Below the pieces are notes generated by a model. The model ran no database searches. It saw only the letters and a program-made list of their open reading frames with translations, and was not told where the DNA came from. The translations under genes and the position numbers were made by a program. A stretch of DNA of 64,000 nt, taken from the NCBI GenBank assembly GCA_001816585.1, contig MHCJ01000003.1:11013-75012 (forward strand), in the 5' to 3' direction. Positions within the stretch are counted from its first letter, which is position 1. The number at the start of each line of letters is the position of its first letter. Shown in pieces: positions 13,572 to 59,159 of the stretch. The stretch is from Candidatus Chisholmbacteria bacterium RIFCSPHIGHO2_01_FULL_52_32. GTDB taxonomy: Bacteria > Patescibacteriota > Microgenomatia > UBA1400 > Chisholmbacteraceae.

Positions 13572-14440
13572 GTTTGGGGTTTCTGATCGGTGTCGGACTC
13601 GTCCTTGGCGTTGGCGCTTCTCTTCCTGACGGGCGGCTGCATATGGTGGTTTGCGATGTCGGTCAGGGCGACGCTATTCTTCTGACTTTCCGATCGAGAC
13701 AGATTCTCGTGGATGGGGGGCCGGATGACCGGGTGGTTGATTGTCTGTCACGGCATATGCCGTTTTGGGACCGGGCGCTTGAAGTAATCGTCCTGACGCA
13801 CCCCCAGGCGGATCATATGAATGGCCTGGTGGATGTGTTGAGGCGATACGATGTTTCGGAAGTGTTCTTGACCGGTGCAACCAATACAACGGATGGTTTT
13901 ATGGCTTTCAAAGCGGCAGTTTTGCAGGAGGGGGCAAGCTTGCACTTTGCCCGAAGGGGAGATGAAATCCGGCTTGAACCCCTGGCCCTGACAGTGGTAT
14001 GGCCGAAAGCGGCGATCGGAACTCTTGCTTCTTTTAGGAAGGAAGCAATTGACGCAGCGGTCCTCGGTGAAACAACCGCAACGGACGTGAATGAGACATC
14101 GGTCGTTCTTCTGGCACAGTTTGGGACGTTTCGGGCTCTGATGACTGGTGATATCGGGATTGATACCGAGCAAGCACTACTCCGTTCGGGAGCGCTAAAT
14201 CGCGTGGACGTCCTAAAAGTTGCGCACCACGGGTCTAAATACGCTACTTCTTCGGATTTTCTTAGTGTCATTCGACCTCAATTGGCTTTGATTTCGGCCG
14301 GAAAGAAGAACCGTTACGGACATCCGACTAGTGATACTTTGATGCGGTTAGATAGTGTTGGGGCAGAAATTCTACGGACCGATGAGCGAGGAGATATTGA
14401 AATCATGTCGAATGGAGAGGATTATTGGGTTTTGGAGTGA
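13544..14440 (+). CDS. ComEC-type metallo-beta-lactamase domain protein (separate gene)
   Basis: DVGQGDA, THPQADH, LKVAHHGS, NRYGHP; start uncertain (ACG 13544 after GGAGG, or TTG 13568). Confidence 0.9.
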   Translation, partial: TGRQAFRLLSLGFLIGVGLVLGVGASLPDGRLHMVVCDVGQGDAILLTFRSRQILVDGGPDDRVVDCLSRHMPFWDRALEVIVLTHPQADHMNGLVDVLRRYDVSEVFLTGATNTTDGFMAFKAAVLQEGASLHFARRGDEIRLEPLALTVVWPKAAIGTLASFRKEAIDAAVLGETTATDVNETSVVLLAQFGTFRALMTGDIGIDTEQALLRSGALNRVDVLKVAHHGSKYATSSDFLSVIRPQLALISAGKKNRYGHPTSDTLMRLDSVGAEILRTDERGDIEIMSNGEDYWVLE

Positions 14441-14507
14441 CCCGCCTATGTTCCAGATATTTCGTCTTGATCATTAGTCAAGACTCCATTCTGGGCACGA
14501 TTGCGGG
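14441..14507. repeat. CCCGC...GCGGG three-stem hairpin
   Basis: Stems cccgc/gcggg, ccaga/tctgg, gtcttga/tcaagac. Confidence 0.6.
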
Positions 14508-14509
14508 CT

Positions 14510-14539
14510 AGTGGTGAGCGATACTGGGTAGTAAAGTAG
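14510..14539 (+). pseudogene. Displaced duplicate 3' end of the MBL gene (SGERYWVVK*)
   Basis: Resembles the current C-terminus NGEDYWVLE*. Confidence 0.55.
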
Positions 14540-14610: not shown

Positions 14611-16524
14611 ATGCTTGCAGAGGAGATCAAGGTTCAGGTTCAAAAGGCGCTCAAAGAGTTGGATTTTCCGGAGGTGCCGATTGTTATTGAGCATCCTAGT
14701 TCGGCAGAGCATGGGGACTATAGCTCGAATGTTGCGTTGCAACTTTTCGCTAAATCCGAAGCACGAAGCACGAAGCACGAAAAAACATCACAGCTCGCTA
14801 AGTATAAAACTCCTAGGGAAATCGCAAAGGCGATTGCTGACTATTTCGGATTTCGGATTTCGGATTTCGGATTTCTTCATAAAGTGGAGTTAGCGGGGCC
14901 GGGGTTTATCAATTTTTGGCTTTCCGAGCAGTTTTTGTCAGACACGCTTAAGCAGGCAATACATCTGGGAGACAGGTATGGGCAGAACGAAGCACTCAAA
15001 GGGAAAAAGATCATGGTGGAGTTTACCGATCCCAACCCGTTTAAAGAGTTTCACATTGGGCACCTGTACAGCAATGCGGTGGGGGAATCTTTGTCGCGAC
15101 TCTTGGATGCAAGTGGCGCCCAAGTAAAACGTGCGAACTACCAAGGAGATGTGGGGTTGCATGTCGCCAAGGCCCTTTATGGGCTCTTGGCGAAGTTAAA
15201 AGTTAAAAGTGAAAAGTTAAAAGTTAATGAGGAGAAGCTTAAGGAGCTTGAGAAGAAACAACTCGCAGAGCGGATCCGAATATTGGGTGAGGCGTATGCG
15301 GTGGGAGCTAAAGCCTATGAAGCGGATGAGAAAGCAAAAGCCCAGATCGAGGAGCTCAACCGAAAGATTTACGCACAGGAGCCGGATGTGATGGAGATAT
15401 ATGGGAAGGGCCGGGCCTGGAGTTTGGAGTACTTTGAGACGATTTACCGGCGGCTCGGAACCAAGTTTGATTTCTACTACTTCGAGTCGGAGGCGGGAAA
15501 AATCGGGCTTGAAGTGGTGAAGGGGGGCTTACGGAAAGGTGTTTTCGAAGAAAGCCAAGGGGCAATCGTTTTCTCCGGAGAAAAACACGGATTACATACG
15601 CGGGTCTTTGTCAACTCACAGGGTTTGCCAACCTATGAGGCAAAAGACTTGGGATTGGCGCCGACGAAATACAAGGATTTTCCCTATGACAAGTCCATCA
15701 TCATTACGGGTAATGAAGTTGATGCGTATTTCAGGGTGGTTTTGAAAGCACTGGCGCTTCTTTCCCCCGAGCTTGGGGAAAAGACGCAACATCTTTCCCA
15801 TGGGATGGTGCGGTTGCCAACAGGAAAGATGTCGAGCCGGACAGGTGAAGTGCTCACCGGCGAATGGCTCATCGATGAGGCGAAAAAGAGGATCTTGAGG
15901 ATAATGGAGCAGGGACCCTCCTTCGCAACTGCGACTTCGCGCAGACTGCCTGTTCGGCCGTTTCGCGAATCGGTTGCTTTGGAGGGTGATAAGCGCGATG
16001 GGGAAATTGTATCGCGCTTGTCAAAAGATGAGGTGGCGGAGATGGTTGGCATCGGGGCGGTCAAATATGCATTGCTTCGAGGGAGTATCGGACGGGATAT
16101 CATTTTTGACATTGATGAATCGGTGAACTTGGAAGGGAACAGCGGGCCGTACCTCCAATACACTTTTGCAAGATGCAAAAGTGTATTGGCAAAATCCGAA
16201 GCACGAAGCACGAAGCACGAAGCAGTTTCGAATTTCGATATTCGAGCTTCGAATTTGAATGCTGAGGATCTCAGCATTCTGCGTTGGTTGTATCGGTATC
16301 CGGAGGTGGTGGAGCAGGCAGTGAAGGGGTATGCACCATACTTGGTGTGTGCTTACCTCTATGGATTGGCGCAGCGATACAATGCCTTTTACAACAAACA
16401 CAGGATTGTTCAGACTAAGAAGGAAGAGGAGAGAAGGTTTCGTCTGATGATGACCAGTGCAATCGCCCAAATTCTTGAGAACGGACTTAAGCTCCTTGGT
16501 ATTGCAGCTCCGGAAACCATGTGA
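14611..16524 (+). CDS. argS: Arginine--tRNA ligase
   Basis: HGDYSSNVA, AGPGFINF, PNPFKEFHIGH, KMSSRTG, GNSGPYLQY; several repeat-derived in-frame inserts. Confidence 0.97.
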   Translation: MLAEEIKVQVQKALKELDFPEVPIVIEHPSSAEHGDYSSNVALQLFAKSEARSTKHEKTSQLAKYKTPREIAKAIADYFGFRISDFGFLHKVELAGPGFINFWLSEQFLSDTLKQAIHLGDRYGQNEALKGKKIMVEFTDPNPFKEFHIGHLYSNAVGESLSRLLDASGAQVKRANYQGDVGLHVAKALYGLLAKLKVKSEKLKVNEEKLKELEKKQLAERIRILGEAYAVGAKAYEADEKAKAQIEELNRKIYAQEPDVMEIYGKGRAWSLEYFETIYRRLGTKFDFYYFESEAGKIGLEVVKGGLRKGVFEESQGAIVFSGEKHGLHTRVFVNSQGLPTYEAKDLGLAPTKYKDFPYDKSIIITGNEVDAYFRVVLKALALLSPELGEKTQHLSHGMVRLPTGKMSSRTGEVLTGEWLIDEAKKRILRIMEQGPSFATATSRRLPVRPFRESVALEGDKRDGEIVSRLSKDEVAEMVGIGAVKYALLRGSIGRDIIFDIDESVNLEGNSGPYLQYTFARCKSVLAKSEARSTKHEAVSNFDIRASNLNAEDLSILRWLYRYPEVVEQAVKGYAPYLVCAYLYGLAQRYNAFYNKHRIVQTKKEEERRFRLMMTSAIAQILENGLKLLGIAAPETM

Positions 16525-17376: not shown

Positions 17377-17525
17377 GAGGAATGACCGCTACCTCTGTGG
17401 GGGTGTGTTACCGTCATAGCATGGATGAGCAGGATGGTTTTGTCTTTCTCTATGCAATGGGCCTTTGTTTTTAATACCTTGTTTGACACGGGTGGAAGGT
17501 TCGTTTATTATAAAAATTGAGTCGT

Positions 17526-20939: not shown

Positions 20940-21689
20940 CCTTGAAAGGTCTGACCTTTCAAGGTCGGTCGATGGTGAGACCTGGAAGGAATGGGTCCGG
21001 CGTTTCATCCTTGGTTTCCACGAACGATTCGTAGGAGGTAAAGTCGATACTCCCGATTCTTCTTCTCGATTTGAAAAAGGCGAGGATTTCTTTCGGCTGA
21101 ATCCATGCGGTCGTTCGCAGCCCAAGATACTCCGCGTAACTTGAGTAGGGATAGTCTTTGAGCGGTTTTTCCCAAAATTTCATTGGATTTTTGTGGATGT
21201 AGCGACTGAGGTGGAGGAACTGCTCGTTGGTTTCCACAAGTACGGCTTTATACACACTCTCAAATAATGATCCTAATCTTCCGTGTGTCTTGTTGAAGTG
21301 AACAGCATACCGAGTTGCTAGGGACTGCATGAATTGTTTCATCATATTTTTTGTCTGTTGCATTACCAGGAGATGGAAGTGATTTGGCATCAGGCAGTAC
21401 GCGAGCAGCTTGAGTTTCCCGGAACAATTCTTGGGTTGATGCGGTATACCTTGAAAGGTCGAACCTTTCAAGGTGAAGGATTGGACGAGGGCTTGTGGGT
21501 TTGGCGGGGGTGAGAGCGCTGTTTTTAGGATATTTAGGAAGACCTGATAATCTTTTTTGCCGACAAAAATAGATCGTTTCTCAACACCCCGATTGTAAAT
21601 ATGGTAGTACCCACCTTCGACATTGATCTTGCGGGTGTGCTTTCGAGGCATAATATTTATCCTACCTTGAAAGGTCTGACCTTTCAAGG
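20940..21689 (-). mobile_element. RAYT-type unit: Y1 transposase flanked by identical 25-nt palindromes, third copy inside the CDS
   Basis: ccttgaaaggtctgacctttcaagg at 20940-20964 and 21665-21689; variant at 21449-21473. Confidence 0.8.
20959..21651 (-). CDS. REP-associated tyrosine transposase (IS200-like HUH/Y1)
   Basis: YYHIYNRG, YCLMPNHFHLL (HUH), YIHKNP, YPYSSY. Confidence 0.92.
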   Translation of the reverse strand: MPRKHTRKINVEGGYYHIYNRGVEKRSIFVGKKDYQVFLNILKTALSPPPNPQALVQSFTLKGSTFQGIPHQPKNCSGKLKLLAYCLMPNHFHLLVMQQTKNMMKQFMQSLATRYAVHFNKTHGRLGSLFESVYKAVLVETNEQFLHLSRYIHKNPMKFWEKPLKDYPYSSYAEYLGLRTTAWIQPKEILAFFKSRRRIGSIDFTSYESFVETKDETPDPFLPGLTIDRP

Positions 21690-51180: not shown

Positions 51181-51810
51181 TTAGCCGCTGATGTAGCGGG
51201 CGTGGTTTCTGACATTGGGTTCCAGAAGCGCATTGGCCTTTCGAATCTCTTGGCAGACGGTCTCTACAGGTTTATTCTCTGCGTCGATGAGGATTTGTGT
51301 ACGGAAGCGGTTCCATCCGCCATCGCCAACATAAACAAAGAAACGAGGGAGAGTAAGCGACTCAAGTTTGAACTGTGGCTCTCCCCAGGCTTGAATGTAG
51401 ATGTCTGGCCGGAGTGACCCGGTGAATCGTTGGACAGTTTGGTCGTATCTCTTGACGAGGTAGACCGCAAATTGAAGGGCGACATTTGGTGTCCAGTCGC
51501 GGCGGGTAATTTTCCCAGGTCTGGCAAAAGACATGTCATAATCATAAGATCTACTGACCGGGTAAACTGATTCTTCTGAATGAAGTACGTTGAGAAGGTA
51601 GGCATATGCCATGTCGGGCGGTCCTGGGTTGGGACGCATATTCTCAGGATATTCGATTTTTTTGGAGACTAGAGCGAGTGGCTCGGATCCGAAACGGGCG
51701 TAGAAATCCTGGGCAAAGCAAGAGAACACACTTTTAAGGAATGGGTCGTATTCAGCCCGTGAGCGTTCAATGGTGTTGCGGAGTTGGTTTCGTTCGGCGG
51801 GAGTAGTCAT
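51181..51810 (-). CDS. Hypothetical protein bracketed by REP-like palindromes
   Basis: 209-aa ORF. Confidence 0.75.
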   Translation of the reverse strand: MTTPAERNQLRNTIERSRAEYDPFLKSVFSCFAQDFYARFGSEPLALVSKKIEYPENMRPNPGPPDMAYAYLLNVLHSEESVYPVSRSYDYDMSFARPGKITRRDWTPNVALQFAVYLVKRYDQTVQRFTGSLRPDIYIQAWGEPQFKLESLTLPRFFVYVGDGGWNRFRTQILIDAENKPVETVCQEIRKANALLEPNVRNHARYISG

Positions 51811-51824
51811 GTCAGAGTTATCGA

Positions 51825-51849
51825 CCTTGAAAGGTTCGACCTTACAAGG
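51825..51849. repeat. REP-like palindrome
   Basis: ccttgaaagg-ttcga-ccttacaagg. Confidence 0.78.
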
Positions 51850-51853
51850 TGGG

Positions 51854-51880
51854 TTAGCCGCGGGCGCGGGTGATGGCCGC
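51854..51880 (-). pseudogene. Displaced synonymous duplicate of the last 9 codons of gene 51999..52625 (AAITRARG*)
   Basis: gcg gcc atc acc cgc gcc cgc ggc taa versus gcg gca att aca aga gct cga gga taa. Confidence 0.85.
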
Positions 51881-51998
51881 CCCGCACAACTCCTGCCTGA
51901 TCTACGGCGTACCGCCTGTACTCTAAGGCACGTCGTATGCGGGGCAGGCTCGAGAATTTGTCAGATCTTGCCATCGCGAATCCTGCGCGGTAATCGGA

Positions 51999-52625
51999 TT
52001 ATCCTCGAGCTCTTGTAATTGCCGCGATGATGAGGATGATGACGAAGAGGACGACAGCCACAATGACGCCGGCTCGGCGTACTCCGGAGAAGAACCCGCC
52101 TGTTTGGGGAGCGATGGTTGGGCTGGCTTCCGGCTGTTCGACAATCTCTCCGAAGCTTTGGGCTGGGGTAGTTCTGGCTGTCGGCGCGGTCGGTTGGGGA
52201 GTTCCCTCGAGGAAACGGATGGATTGGACTGCCCCTTGCATGACGATATCAGCAGAAGGGGTCCTGGCCCGGTTGCCGCGTTCCCTGGTGACAAGGAGGC
52301 TTGAGAAAGCGGTCTTCGTCTTGAACTGCGCTTTTCCGACCCCAAGGTCACCGAGTTTGGCTGCATTTCCGCCGGTGGTCGGATTAGTCCAGAGCGTATA
52401 GGTGAATTCCTCTGGAGTCGCAGGGTAGATCAGGTCACGACAGCTGACGACGACCTGGTAGTTGTAGTCGGGCATGAGTACCGAGGCGGCAAAGCAGCGG
52501 GCGGCTTGGCCCGTGGTCGAACGAAGCTCGGCGGTACCTTCAGAGGCATGCACGGCACGCGCTCCAGAAAGGAACAGCGCTGCGGCTACAAAAAAAGCGG
52601 CGGACAGAAGCCGTAATGATTTCAT
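51999..52625 (-). CDS. Secreted protein with C-terminal membrane anchor
   Basis: Signal peptide ending VHA, PT-rich linker, C-terminal TM. Confidence 0.82.
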   Translation of the reverse strand: MKSLRLLSAAFFVAAALFLSGARAVHASEGTAELRSTTGQAARCFAASVLMPDYNYQVVVSCRDLIYPATPEEFTYTLWTNPTTGGNAAKLGDLGVGKAQFKTKTAFSSLLVTRERGNRARTPSADIVMQGAVQSIRFLEGTPQPTAPTARTTPAQSFGEIVEQPEASPTIAPQTGGFFSGVRRAGVIVAVVLFVIILIIAAITRARG

Positions 52626-56786: not shown

Positions 56787-56855
56787 ATGCGTGTGCTTTT
56801 TGTTGCCGCGGAGGCGGCGCCTTTAGTCAAGGTCGGGGGTTTGTCGCAGTCTTAA
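56787..56855 (+). pseudogene. Displaced 5' fragment of glgA (MRVLFVAAEAAPLVKVGGLSQS*)
   Basis: 17 of the first 19 residues match GlgA at 57831; retains a TTGTCT-N17-TATAGT promoter. Confidence 0.88.
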
Positions 56856-56897
56856 GGAAATGATCAGGAGTTTATTCCAAGCGCTGGTTTACTATCG

Positions 56898-57539
56898 TTA
56901 AACAGCTCGTACTACTTCCGGATCTCCTTGACTAAACCGAGAAAGCTCTTGTTTTATGGCTTCGGGGTTGCTATTCGCCCTTATTAGAGGACCCATCGTT
57001 TCGGATAGCCATTTACCGTCGATTGTTTGCTGGGAATCACGCAAGATTCTCCTGCCGTCACTGGCCAGTAAAGACCAGGCTACCCCGCTTGATAATGCGT
57101 GCTGTCGTTCGTTGGGTCCTCTGGAGGTGTTGAGAAGCTCACGGATATAGGTTGCAAGCAGCCAGCGCTGGGCTCCTGCCGCTCTTTCGGATCCCAACTC
57201 CCTATAGTGTGAATAGTTGGGTAGATTTCTTATTCTTTCTACAAGAGCTTCTCTTGTCCGATCGAAGAAAGAATCCGCAACGCCGCTATTGCCGGAAAGA
57301 TACAGACGCATTGAAGATACTTCAAGTTTCACCTGTTGTCGTAATAAGCCTTTTATGATTTTGTCCGCAGCCTCCAGTCCACTTTTTGTTGAATCAAACT
57401 CGGCAAACCTTTCTAGTGCATCAAAGACGCTGCGTATTCCATCCTCAGTCTTCCTCTTTACTTCTGCGAGGAGGGTTTCTTTTTTCTCGGTTGGCGTTTG
57501 TTCTTGAGGGATTCCTTCTTCCTCGGGAGGTTGTTCCAT
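56898..57539 (-). CDS. Hypothetical protein between the two glgA 5' ends
   Basis: 213-aa ORF. Confidence 0.75.
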   Translation of the reverse strand: MEQPPEEEGIPQEQTPTEKKETLLAEVKRKTEDGIRSVFDALERFAEFDSTKSGLEAADKIIKGLLRQQVKLEVSSMRLYLSGNSGVADSFFDRTREALVERIRNLPNYSHYRELGSERAAGAQRWLLATYIRELLNTSRGPNERQHALSSGVAWSLLASDGRRILRDSQQTIDGKWLSETMGPLIRANSNPEAIKQELSRFSQGDPEVVRAV

Positions 57540-57737
57540 AGCCTTCTTGTTGTAGAGGACTGAAGATAGTGTACTACAAAAAGGACAGTATAAACATTCC
57601 TTGCGAGGTAGTCTTGAGAAGTCATTGGGGAACCAGAGCGGTTCCTTCGTGGACGCTCTTCTTGAAACGAAAGGCGTGCGAGGAGAATTATCTGAAGGTG
57701 GGACATAATTCCTAGGTTCTTTGACAACTTGTCACGT

Positions 57738-57771
57738 AGAGGTCGGACCTCTGCACAGAGGTCCGACCTCT
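57738..57771. repeat. Palindromic REP-like doublet
   Basis: agaggtcggacctct-gcac-agaggtccgacctct. Confidence 0.7.
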
Positions 57772-57830
57772 TAAGGCTCCTATTTTTCATGAGTCTTTGC
57801 CATAAGAAGAATTCATAGTACACTTAAGCA

Positions 57831-59159
57831 ATGCGCGTCTTATATGTTGCTGCGGAGGCGGCGCCGATTGTCAAGGTCGGGGGTCTTGGGGATGTAGCGG
57901 GAAGCCTTCCTTTGGCTTTGAAGCGGCTAGGGGTGGATGTGCGGGTGGCTATCCCCTGGTATCCGGAGATCGATGCTTTGCGATGGCAAGTTCAGGAGAA
58001 CGGTGGGGTGGGGGTGACGAGGCTTGGCGAGAGCGAGGTGCCAGTCTATCTTCTGGCTCGGGATGTGTTTGCCGATGCCGGGCCTCATAAGGCGATCGCG
58101 GGGACGAAGGCAGAGGAAACCTGGTTCTCCGGTTTCTGCGATGCGGTCGTAACGTTTCTGAAAGACTCCGAATGGAAGCCGGAAGTCTTGCACGGGAACG
58201 ATTGGCATGTGGCACGGGCCTTGTCCTTTGTTGAGAGAACCTCTCGTGAGACCTTCAGCCAGTGGGGATTTACCCATAAGAACCTGGCGACCATCCTCAC
58301 CATTCATAACCTCAGCTACCACCCAAAAATGATGAAAGAGGCTATTCTTGCTGCGGATGTGATCAACGCGGTTTCACCGACCTATGCGAAAGAAATTCTT
58401 ACTTCAGATTATTGCGAGGGACTCTGTGAAGAGCTCAATGCACGGAAAGCAGATCTTTACGGGATCTTAAACGGGATTGATTACGGAGTTTGGAGTCCGG
58501 AGACGGATGCGCGTGTCTCGACTAAGTACAGCACGGTAACTTGGAAGACGGGAAAAGCGGGAAACAAGATGGCTTTGCGGCAGAAGCTCGGTCTTGCAAA
58601 AGAGGGGGGAATGCTTCTCGGGTTTGTCGGCAGGATCGACGCCAACCAGAAGGGCATCGGGATTTTGGCTGAGGCCATGGACCGGTTGGTGGCGTTGGGT
58701 AGCCAGGTGGTCGTACTGGGGACCGGTGACCCGAAATATGAGAAACGACTGGCCTTGGTGGCTGCCCGTTATCCGAAGAACGTCGCATGTATTTTGCGCT
58801 ACGATGAAGATTTGGCGCACCTTATCTATGCGGGGGCGGATGCGCTGCTTATTCCGAGCAAATTTGAACCCTGCGGATTGATCCAATTGATCGGCATGCG
58901 GTATGGAACTCTCCCAATTGCGCGGGCAACCGGGGGACTTTCCGATACTATTCGGGACGGTGAAACCGGGTTTCTGTTTACCGCATATTCTTCTCAAGGG
59001 TTGGTCGGGGCCGTTGAGCGGGCCCGGGACATGTTCGCGGCCGAACCGGTTTCATGGGAAGTGTTGGTCGGAACCGGCATGCGCGAGGATTTTTCCTGGG
59101 ACCGTTCGGCTGAAGAATATCTTAGGCTGTATGAGCGCGCGCTTGCAAAAAGTGGGTAG
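57831..59159 (+). CDS. glgA: Glycogen synthase (GT5), paralog 2
   Basis: KVGGLGDV, HGNDWH, GILNGID, PSKFEPCGLIQL. Confidence 0.93.
   Translation: MRVLYVAAEAAPIVKVGGLGDVAGSLPLALKRLGVDVRVAIPWYPEIDALRWQVQENGGVGVTRLGESEVPVYLLARDVFADAGPHKAIAGTKAEETWFSGFCDAVVTFLKDSEWKPEVLHGNDWHVARALSFVERTSRETFSQWGFTHKNLATILTIHNLSYHPKMMKEAILAADVINAVSPTYAKEILTSDYCEGLCEELNARKADLYGILNGIDYGVWSPETDARVSTKYSTVTWKTGKAGNKMALRQKLGLAKEGGMLLGFVGRIDANQKGIGILAEAMDRLVALGSQVVVLGTGDPKYEKRLALVAARYPKNVACILRYDEDLAHLIYAGADALLIPSKFEPCGLIQLIGMRYGTLPIARATGGLSDTIRDGETGFLFTAYSSQGLVGAVERARDMFAAEPVSWEVLVGTGMREDFSWDRSAEEYLRLYERALAKSG

Follow-up and report, generated by a model that had tools for sequence, protein, structure and literature searches.

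We analysed a 64,000-nt window, positions 11013-75012 of contig C3 in the 1.25 Mb, eight-contig genome of Candidatus Chisholmbacteria bacterium RIFCSPHIGHO2_01_FULL_52_32 (genome label G000). The gene of interest lies within a run of unknown genes inside the glycogen cluster (Table 1), and its product has, as judged from sequence, a signal-peptide-like start and a C-terminal hydrophobic helix with a basic tail. The 208-residue protein matched no family in Pfam or NCBIfam, and a fold lead to RskA_C-like proteins was weak (TM < 0.5). Homologs of the gene were found in 17 of 61 genomes, its own included.

Table 1. Features discussed in the text, with window positions, strand and basis of assignment.
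Feature	Position	Strand	Basis
Host gene, 208 aa	51999..52625	-	ORF and sequence features
Live gene end AAITRARG*, probably foreign in style	51999..52025	-	codon comparison
Spacer, 50 nt, unique in the genome and the fetched loci	51949..51998	-	sequence search, folding
Hairpin tag, unpaired 4 nt CCTG, at hairpin 5' foot	51945..51948	-	tag count, folding
Bulged hairpin, 65 nt	51880..51944	-	covariance searches, folding
Displaced gene end, probably native in style, with its own stop; starts at hairpin 3' foot	51854..51880	-	codon comparison
Short palindrome of another repeat family; lies next to the insert but outside it	51824..51850	.	repeat comparison
RAYT-like Y1 (HUH) gene, candidate trans-acting enzyme	20959..21687	-	match below NCBIfam cut-off
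comEC scar: end, hairpin of another family (antisense), displaced end	14402..14539	+	gene-end scan
glgA start scar (N-terminus): 19 displaced start codons, then a 987-nt stretch containing one unknown ORF, then the live start at 57831	56787..57887	+	

The duplicated gene end

The terminal peptide AAITRARG and its stop are encoded twice on the minus strand, at an offset of 145 nt. Only one of the eight sense codons is shared; the other seven are synonymous variants (8 of 27 nt changed, none non-silent). Seven codons of the live end terminate in A or T and seven of the displaced end in C, as do the ten that stand directly ahead of the junction. Under a codon model of the gene body the displaced copy scored as the native one with a margin of 9.9 bits, and under a genome model with 3.5 bits. 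These coordinates and codon comparisons bear out a preliminary description of the locus, which had reported two synonymous copies, the displaced one resembling the rest of the gene. Codon use marks the displaced copy as the probable native end and the live copy as putatively foreign. By chance, an exact match of eight residues plus stop, no more than 400 nt from one of the 1120 ORFs, would be expected about 8e-6 times in the genome. In a stop-anchored genome scan the focal duplicate was the top match, and 3 of 1119 ORFs scored at least 33, compared with 1, 1, 0 and 0 in controls.

Single contigs from three of four runs cover the scar with no mismatches and no gaps (X5, 51508-52453; X7, 51437-52272; X12, 51626-52065). 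Among the matches listed for run X6, no piece spans it. No empty-site joint was seen in the contigs of the four runs, contigs being prone to drop rare variants. An apparent 649-nt skip in three runs is not an excision; it derives from G000:C7:19938, which has the same short repeats. Collectively, the observation is real and not an artefact.

Duplication in place followed by drift was rejected because a dead copy would not differ at silent sites alone, and DGR-type mutagenesis because the differences are C versus A/T and not adenine-specific. The preliminary description had invoked an element that restores the gene with a recoded end. Instead, AAITRARG is the exact terminal peptide of 5 of 16 host-protein homologs (48-80% identical), and a sixth ends one residue away from it. 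The recoded look therefore needs no special process, and the live end would most simply be the gene end of a distant relative. All 16 relatives with the gene, from 60 genomes searched, show one C-terminus in the approximately 400 nt inspected downstream, which, as far as it reaches, speaks against the integrase island that the preliminary description had named as a possible source. Since the nearest host-gene relative among them is only 51% identical, none represents an empty allele. A metagenome search with the host gene yielded one match, a 99%-identical partial locus that ends before the gene end.

The 145-nt insert contains no ORF. The two junctions have a 5-nt identity in common (52021-52025 on the left), which confines the left crossover to these positions; the displaced end overlaps the hairpin foot by 1 nt. 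There is no clear stub of the old gene 5' of the tag. Live end and spacer together were no more structured than shuffles (z = +0.3), and a 10-bp inverted repeat between them was likewise not significant (z = +0.3). Beyond the displaced stop follows the copy of the short palindrome at 51824-51850, and the same palindrome flanks the RAYT-like gene at 20959-21687 and also lies inside it.

The tagged hairpin, its family and its targets

The full focal element (51880-51948, minus strand) is 69 nt long and consists of the 4-nt tag and one long bulged hairpin of three stacked helices; folded as ssDNA, it reached z = -4.0 relative to shuffles. The preliminary description had placed a three-stem hairpin, CCCGC...GCGGG, at 51881-51943; the hairpin stands, but its helices are stacked and not branched. 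The family comprises 45 copies in 19 Patescibacteria genomes, with one to six per genome and six in G000. Covariance searches gave 27 copies in 9 of 149 genomes at order level and 10 in 6 of 149 at phylum level, and two family-level searches added 7 further copies. The distribution is patchy, since 149 class-level genomes gave a single weak copy outside G000, although strict filters may miss weak copies. In the hairpin alignment, 87.9% of cells were paired and two-sided changes occurred in 16 of 24 pairs (slid controls 32-43%), values that come from an alignment fitted to the structure and from related copies that are not independent.

Tags and flank repeats were counted in 43 copies, two truncated ones being excluded. 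The commonest tag was CCTG (14 copies), with CTTG and GCAG in 5 each and GTAG in 1, and flank repeats did not exceed 2 nt in 37 of the 43. The hairpin inserts without target duplication. A lone 69-nt copy lies in frame and antisense inside comEC of genome G332 (L188:1501-1569), where it adds 23 residues. The hairpin frequently sits within the displaced piece. Its solitary insertion in comEC, and the several scars in which the old gene flanks it, speak against the earlier picture of a roughly 140-nt insert that always moves as one unit.

Database searches gave the hairpin no known identity. Rfam had no match over it at E <= 5 in 5 loci, nor at gathering score in 16 loci, so that its assignment as a structured RNA, ribozyme or SRP was dropped. 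Three tight hairpin patterns had no match in viral contigs; a loose pattern produced chance matches, the best with 22 bits under model R1. Blastn returned nothing from phage and three GC-rich fragments from plasmids (E = 0.5). A first sequence-pattern search of genomes found no match and a second found six, all of them, by place or sequence, copies already recovered with the covariance model. Our literature search, with thin coverage of subscription journals, returned no paper on the hairpin element or on hairpin-linked end swapping in Patescibacteria. The hairpin apparently belongs to a family not described before, whose link to gene-end exchange is polar.

In 16 of the 45 copies, the sequence 3' of the hairpin foot is repeated 25-83 nt upstream (score >= 9), compared with 1.7% of 1980 mismatched control pairs, whereas the reverse arrangement was found in 2 of 45 (control 1.8%). 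A further 6 copies score 7-8, and 29 of the 45 miss the duplicate threshold. The new piece lies 5' of the tag and the old piece follows the 3' foot; a reversed arrangement is seen at a copy on G000:C2, at a copy in G028 and in the comEC scar. The systematic search for duplicated termini and the covariance model that had been proposed as checks have thus revealed scars at many genes of this and other genomes, and a hairpin family of fixed polarity.

Targets of the duplicates include tRNAs, radA, mreB, uvrB, galU, obgE and rpsI. Where the hairpin is sense to the target, the 3' end is swapped (the focal gene, S9, tRNA-Ile, tRNA-Pro, tRNA-Arg); where it is antisense, the start is swapped (radA, mreB, uvrB, obgE, a nucleotidyl transferase, a GT2). 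Six copies are directly followed by a tRNA T-loop, and near rRNA genes hairpin copies accompany doubled non-coding signals, presumably boxA. In the tRNA scars, the 5 nt before the tag pair at all five positions with the displaced T-arm in three of six cases, and do so better than the live arm in four of six; in some, live and displaced arms are unpaired with each other and whole tRNAs have been replaced. Among ten coding scars judged by eye, the reading frame runs on across the removed element in four, and the focal site and five others have no clear stub. In only three of nine coding scars is the hairpin in frame and stop-free in the old frame. Gene-body codon log ratios over 16 scars, positive where the displaced piece appears native, exceeded +2 bits in 8 and fell below -2 in 3.

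Other scars and candidate enzymes

Other scars had been listed for the window at 14510, 17405 and 56787. The first (comEC C-terminus, 6/13 residues) and the last (glgA N-terminus, 17 of 19 residues alike) are present; at 17405, no match to the end of any neighbouring gene was recovered. The glgA scar has no copy of the focal hairpin family, and the hairpin at 14441, which had been likened to the focal one, belongs to another family of similar outline (twin at G000:C6:39803), model R1 finding the focal copy alone in the window at E <= 1. A genome scan gave eight short scars in G000. By eye, a long hairpin, mostly of other families, abuts the displaced piece in six of these; of the other two, one has a short repeat and one has none.

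More short gene-end scars lie at G000:C3:118054, 753349, 456282, 72684 and 600202 and at C2:2221, most of them with tagged hairpins of other families; from their peptides, we take them to be mreB-like, miaB-like and epimerase-like starts and an L7/L12-like end. Two different tagged hairpins stand in tandem within a displaced C-terminus at G000:C2:2047-2186 (L025), and a third lies at C2:1880. A 34-nt palindrome (57738-57771) just before the live glgA start recurs across numerous unrelated contigs of the runs. At window positions 14750-14880, heptamers repeated in tandem form two inverted blocks, which lie in frame close to the beginning of the presumably argS-like long ORF 14612-16524. Long heptamer arrays, followed by a short ORF, are likewise found downstream of the host-gene homolog in L013 and L014; we assume that this ORF encodes a four-helix-bundle-like protein.

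The preliminary description had noted that no integrase lies beside the scar, and our searches agree, both there and at the other hairpin loci. Of 138 ORFs near hairpins, 63 were scanned with Pfam and gave no integrase or transposase catalytic domain, one of the 63 having transposase-type HTH domains alone, and tblastn with the two tyrosine recombinases of G000 gave no match in the hairpin loci. No larger insert carrying a recombinase or HUH gene was found within 1.5 kb of hairpin copies (5 kb for four loci). Besides the tyrosine recombinases, G000 encodes three small GIY-YIG genes (C3:349439, C1:114 and C1:1419) and two Y1 genes of RAYT-like type (C3:31971-32699 and 561890-562672), each of the latter with short repeats of its own; that at window positions 20959-21687 is paired with such a repeat and not with the focal hairpin. 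When 76 loci surrounding genes for GIY-YIG proteins, Y1 proteins and tyrosine recombinases were searched, the hairpin model had no match: none in 32 Y1 loci, chosen mainly for high-scoring IS200-type genes and including the two of G000, and none in 42 GIY-YIG loci, taken irrespective of CDD subfamily. Of the 45 copies, 2 have a GIY-YIG gene within 1.5 kb. A Y1 gene is present in all nine hairpin-positive genomes of the order sample but also in 95 of its 149 genomes overall (64%), and GIY-YIG genes occur in 60 of 61 genomes; both are too common for presence/absence profiling to be informative. At G000:C3:349343-349730 (L228), a small GIY-YIG gene sits between the displaced 5' half of a tRNA-Val, broken at the T-loop, and a complete tRNA-Val(CAC). 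A tRNA gene lies within about 0.6 kb in 32 of the 42 loci around GIY-YIG matches (L240-L279, L228, L229).

Origin of the swapped ends

The preliminary proposal of a new route for gene-end swapping finds partial support in the recurrence of the scars and their tie to a hairpin, but its premise that hairpin and new end always form one 140-nt unit is not. Our preferred reading, to which we give slightly less than an even chance, is that a REP-like mobile tagged hairpin, folded in ssDNA, is cut by some enzyme and that the break is patched with a distant relative's gene end. The hairpin would insert close to where a gene, tRNA or other conserved signal ends, and a nuclease reading the tagged hairpin in ssDNA would cut 0-13 nt 5' of the tag. 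The freed upstream end could then pair in register with homologous DNA gained by natural competence; the relative's gene end and 0-60 nt of flank would be copied or received and rejoined at the cut, and the old gene end would be left behind the hairpin. At the focal site, the left crossover would lie in the 5-nt identity at the insertion register, with no old-gene stub remaining.

In several scars, old-gene sequence extends to the 5' side of the tag, which suggests that the element inserted before the patch was made and that the second junction lies 0-13 nt 5' of the tag; lacking a clear stub, the focal site cannot itself separate this order from joint arrival. Patching is supported by a donor pool, with AAITRARG at the end of 5 of 16 homologs, and by a host that has a comEC-like gene and dprA and no MutS_V match in its genome. 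Competence is reported for Saccharibacteria in the cited part of PMC10633639, and Ssn offers, in the section of PMC11893778 used here, a precedent for a cut a few nucleotides 5' of an oriented ssDNA hairpin. Several points count against the two-step order. The element is in frame and stop-free in only three of nine coding scars, so that insertion would break some essential genes; the focal site and five other coding scars have no clear stub, which fits joint arrival of hairpin and new end; and there are the reversed copies, the mixed codon evidence elsewhere, the 29 copies below the duplicate threshold, the absence of an observed empty allele at the focal site and the lack of an enzyme beside the copies. 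A bolder proposal is a dedicated system of Patescibacteria, in which one small enzyme would recognise tagged ssDNA hairpins and, guided by an identity of no more than 65-75%, splice them with the attached gene end into the corresponding site of whichever gene, tRNA or promoter matches; we consider it possible but doubtful.

A one-step route is unlikely, yet accounts for much of the focal site. A Y1/RAYT-type HUH enzyme would excise the hairpin and captured upstream DNA as ssDNA and join the 3' foot to the homologous position in a relative's gene, the carried end serving as guide. At the focal site a single 5-nt identity holds both junctions, as a clean insertion of 145 nt would give, the polarity of hairpin and swapped end is fixed, and all nine hairpin-positive genomes of the order sample have a Y1 gene. 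The 4-nt tag at the 5' foot and the lack of target duplication recall IS200/IS605 and REP sequences (PMC6006769, cited part). However, stubs of an old tRNA or frame 5' of the tag are not expected from such joining, whole tRNAs are replaced in some scars, the two Y1 genes of G000 have repeats of their own, and the base rate of Y1 genes is 64%.

It is improbable that the scars arose first, by homology-facilitated illegitimate recombination (HFIR) or from old islands, and that the hairpin merely survives where it later landed in a dead copy. G000 does have scars without the focal hairpin (the GalE-like start and the glgA start), other hairpin families occupy other scars, and the stubs place the hairpin inside the dead piece. 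A late arrival, however, should not sit 0-13 nt from the junction in fixed orientation (16 versus 2 copies), nor should six of eight short scars hold a long hairpin against the displaced piece, as they do by eye.

Integrase elements that restore the end of the gene they enter include e14/phage 21 in icd. That the focal insert is the deletion remnant of a tyrosine-integrase island, with the hairpin as part of its attachment arm, is nevertheless a slim prospect. The restored target with a displaced fragment is the same signature (PMC4383910, cited part), six copies lie at tRNA T-loops, and the focal site is in the unknown-gene run of the glycogen cluster. Yet one hairpin family is found at more than ten different targets, with a repeat distance of 25-83 nt in 16 of 16 scored cases and no longer form in the flanks searched. 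The 63 scanned neighbour ORFs without an integrase domain, the negative tblastn search, the stand-alone insertion in comEC and the absence of exact patterns from viral contigs likewise weigh against it. An assembly chimera of two strains, which the preliminary description had raised for this metagenome-derived genome, can practically be dismissed, because contigs of X5, X7 and X12 cross the site unaltered (a check on contigs, not on raw or long reads, from runs that may be one field campaign) and the same architecture recurs in other genomes.

The hairpin element fails a defining test of tyrosine-integrase islands, REP/REPIN-RAYT, Ssn/SRM and mobile endonuclease ORFs. A similar outcome is known from fungal mitochondria, in which mobile endonuclease ORFs carry a foreign C-terminus (Allomyces atp6; Glomus atp6, atp9, cox2 and nad3; PMC3630166). 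As in our scars, a synonymously diverged foreign end is in frame, the native end is displaced downstream and several genes per genome are targets, but the cited part describes LAGLIDADG or GIY-YIG ORFs of about 0.4-1 kb, whereas the insert here has no ORF but a conserved non-coding hairpin, N-termini and tRNAs are swapped too and the host is bacterial. With REP/REPIN-RAYT and IS200/IS605 ends the element shares an imperfect ssDNA hairpin with an unpaired 5' tetranucleotide, a size within 21-65 nt, the lack of target duplication and, with REPs, occasional in-frame insertion (PMC6006769, PMC3733652). In contrast to REPs, its tags are CCTG, CTTG or GCAG, not GTAG/GTGG or CGTC, there are one to six copies per genome, no copy flanks a RAYT gene in the loci sampled (0 of 32 Y1 loci), and the cited parts of both papers do not describe gene-end replacement.

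Ssn nucleases with their NTS/SRM hairpins, which act during natural transformation, likewise offer an oriented hairpin whose stem is preceded by conserved bases, and a cut a few nt upstream would match our junction (PMC11893778). The hairpin here is longer (69 nt versus 20-50 nt) and has a different tag and stem and no SRM motif. Ssn-type copies would flank a small cd10448 GIY-YIG gene; the hairpin model had no match in the 42 GIY-YIG loci, taken irrespective of CDD subfamily. In the part of that study cited, Ssn restricts integration and displaced ends do not feature. HFIR and the orphan 3' modules of Rhs/T6SS loci combine one homologous with one illegitimate junction and leave the old module downstream, favoured without MutS (PMC5361080, PMC6382021), but the cited passages contain no hairpin, whereas here 13-60 nt pieces of housekeeping genes and tRNAs are exchanged at a junction fixed relative to an oriented element. 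HFIR would leave one RecA-anchored junction and one with 3-10 nt of microhomology; the focal site has a 5-nt identity on its left and a 1-nt overlap at the hairpin foot. From tyrosine-integrase islands as given in the cited part of PMC4383910, the scars are set apart by an insert below 150 nt with no integrase and no attP of about 250 bp, and by the lack of one cognate target (tRNA-Ile, -Pro and -Arg plus at least seven protein genes).

In CPR annotations, these scars give rise to spurious starts, spurious short ORFs and termini of mosaic make-up. With a 69-nt substrate defined, a cut window predicted and few candidate enzymes to consider, the enzyme question can be tested directly. If one enzyme does perform the joining, it would represent a retargetable ssDNA integration chemistry and a natural route of gene-end exchange. 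Gene ends, tRNAs and signals appear to be swapped between distant lineages of ultra-small bacteria, in pieces of 20-60 bases, at an oriented non-coding element for which no known family fully accounts.
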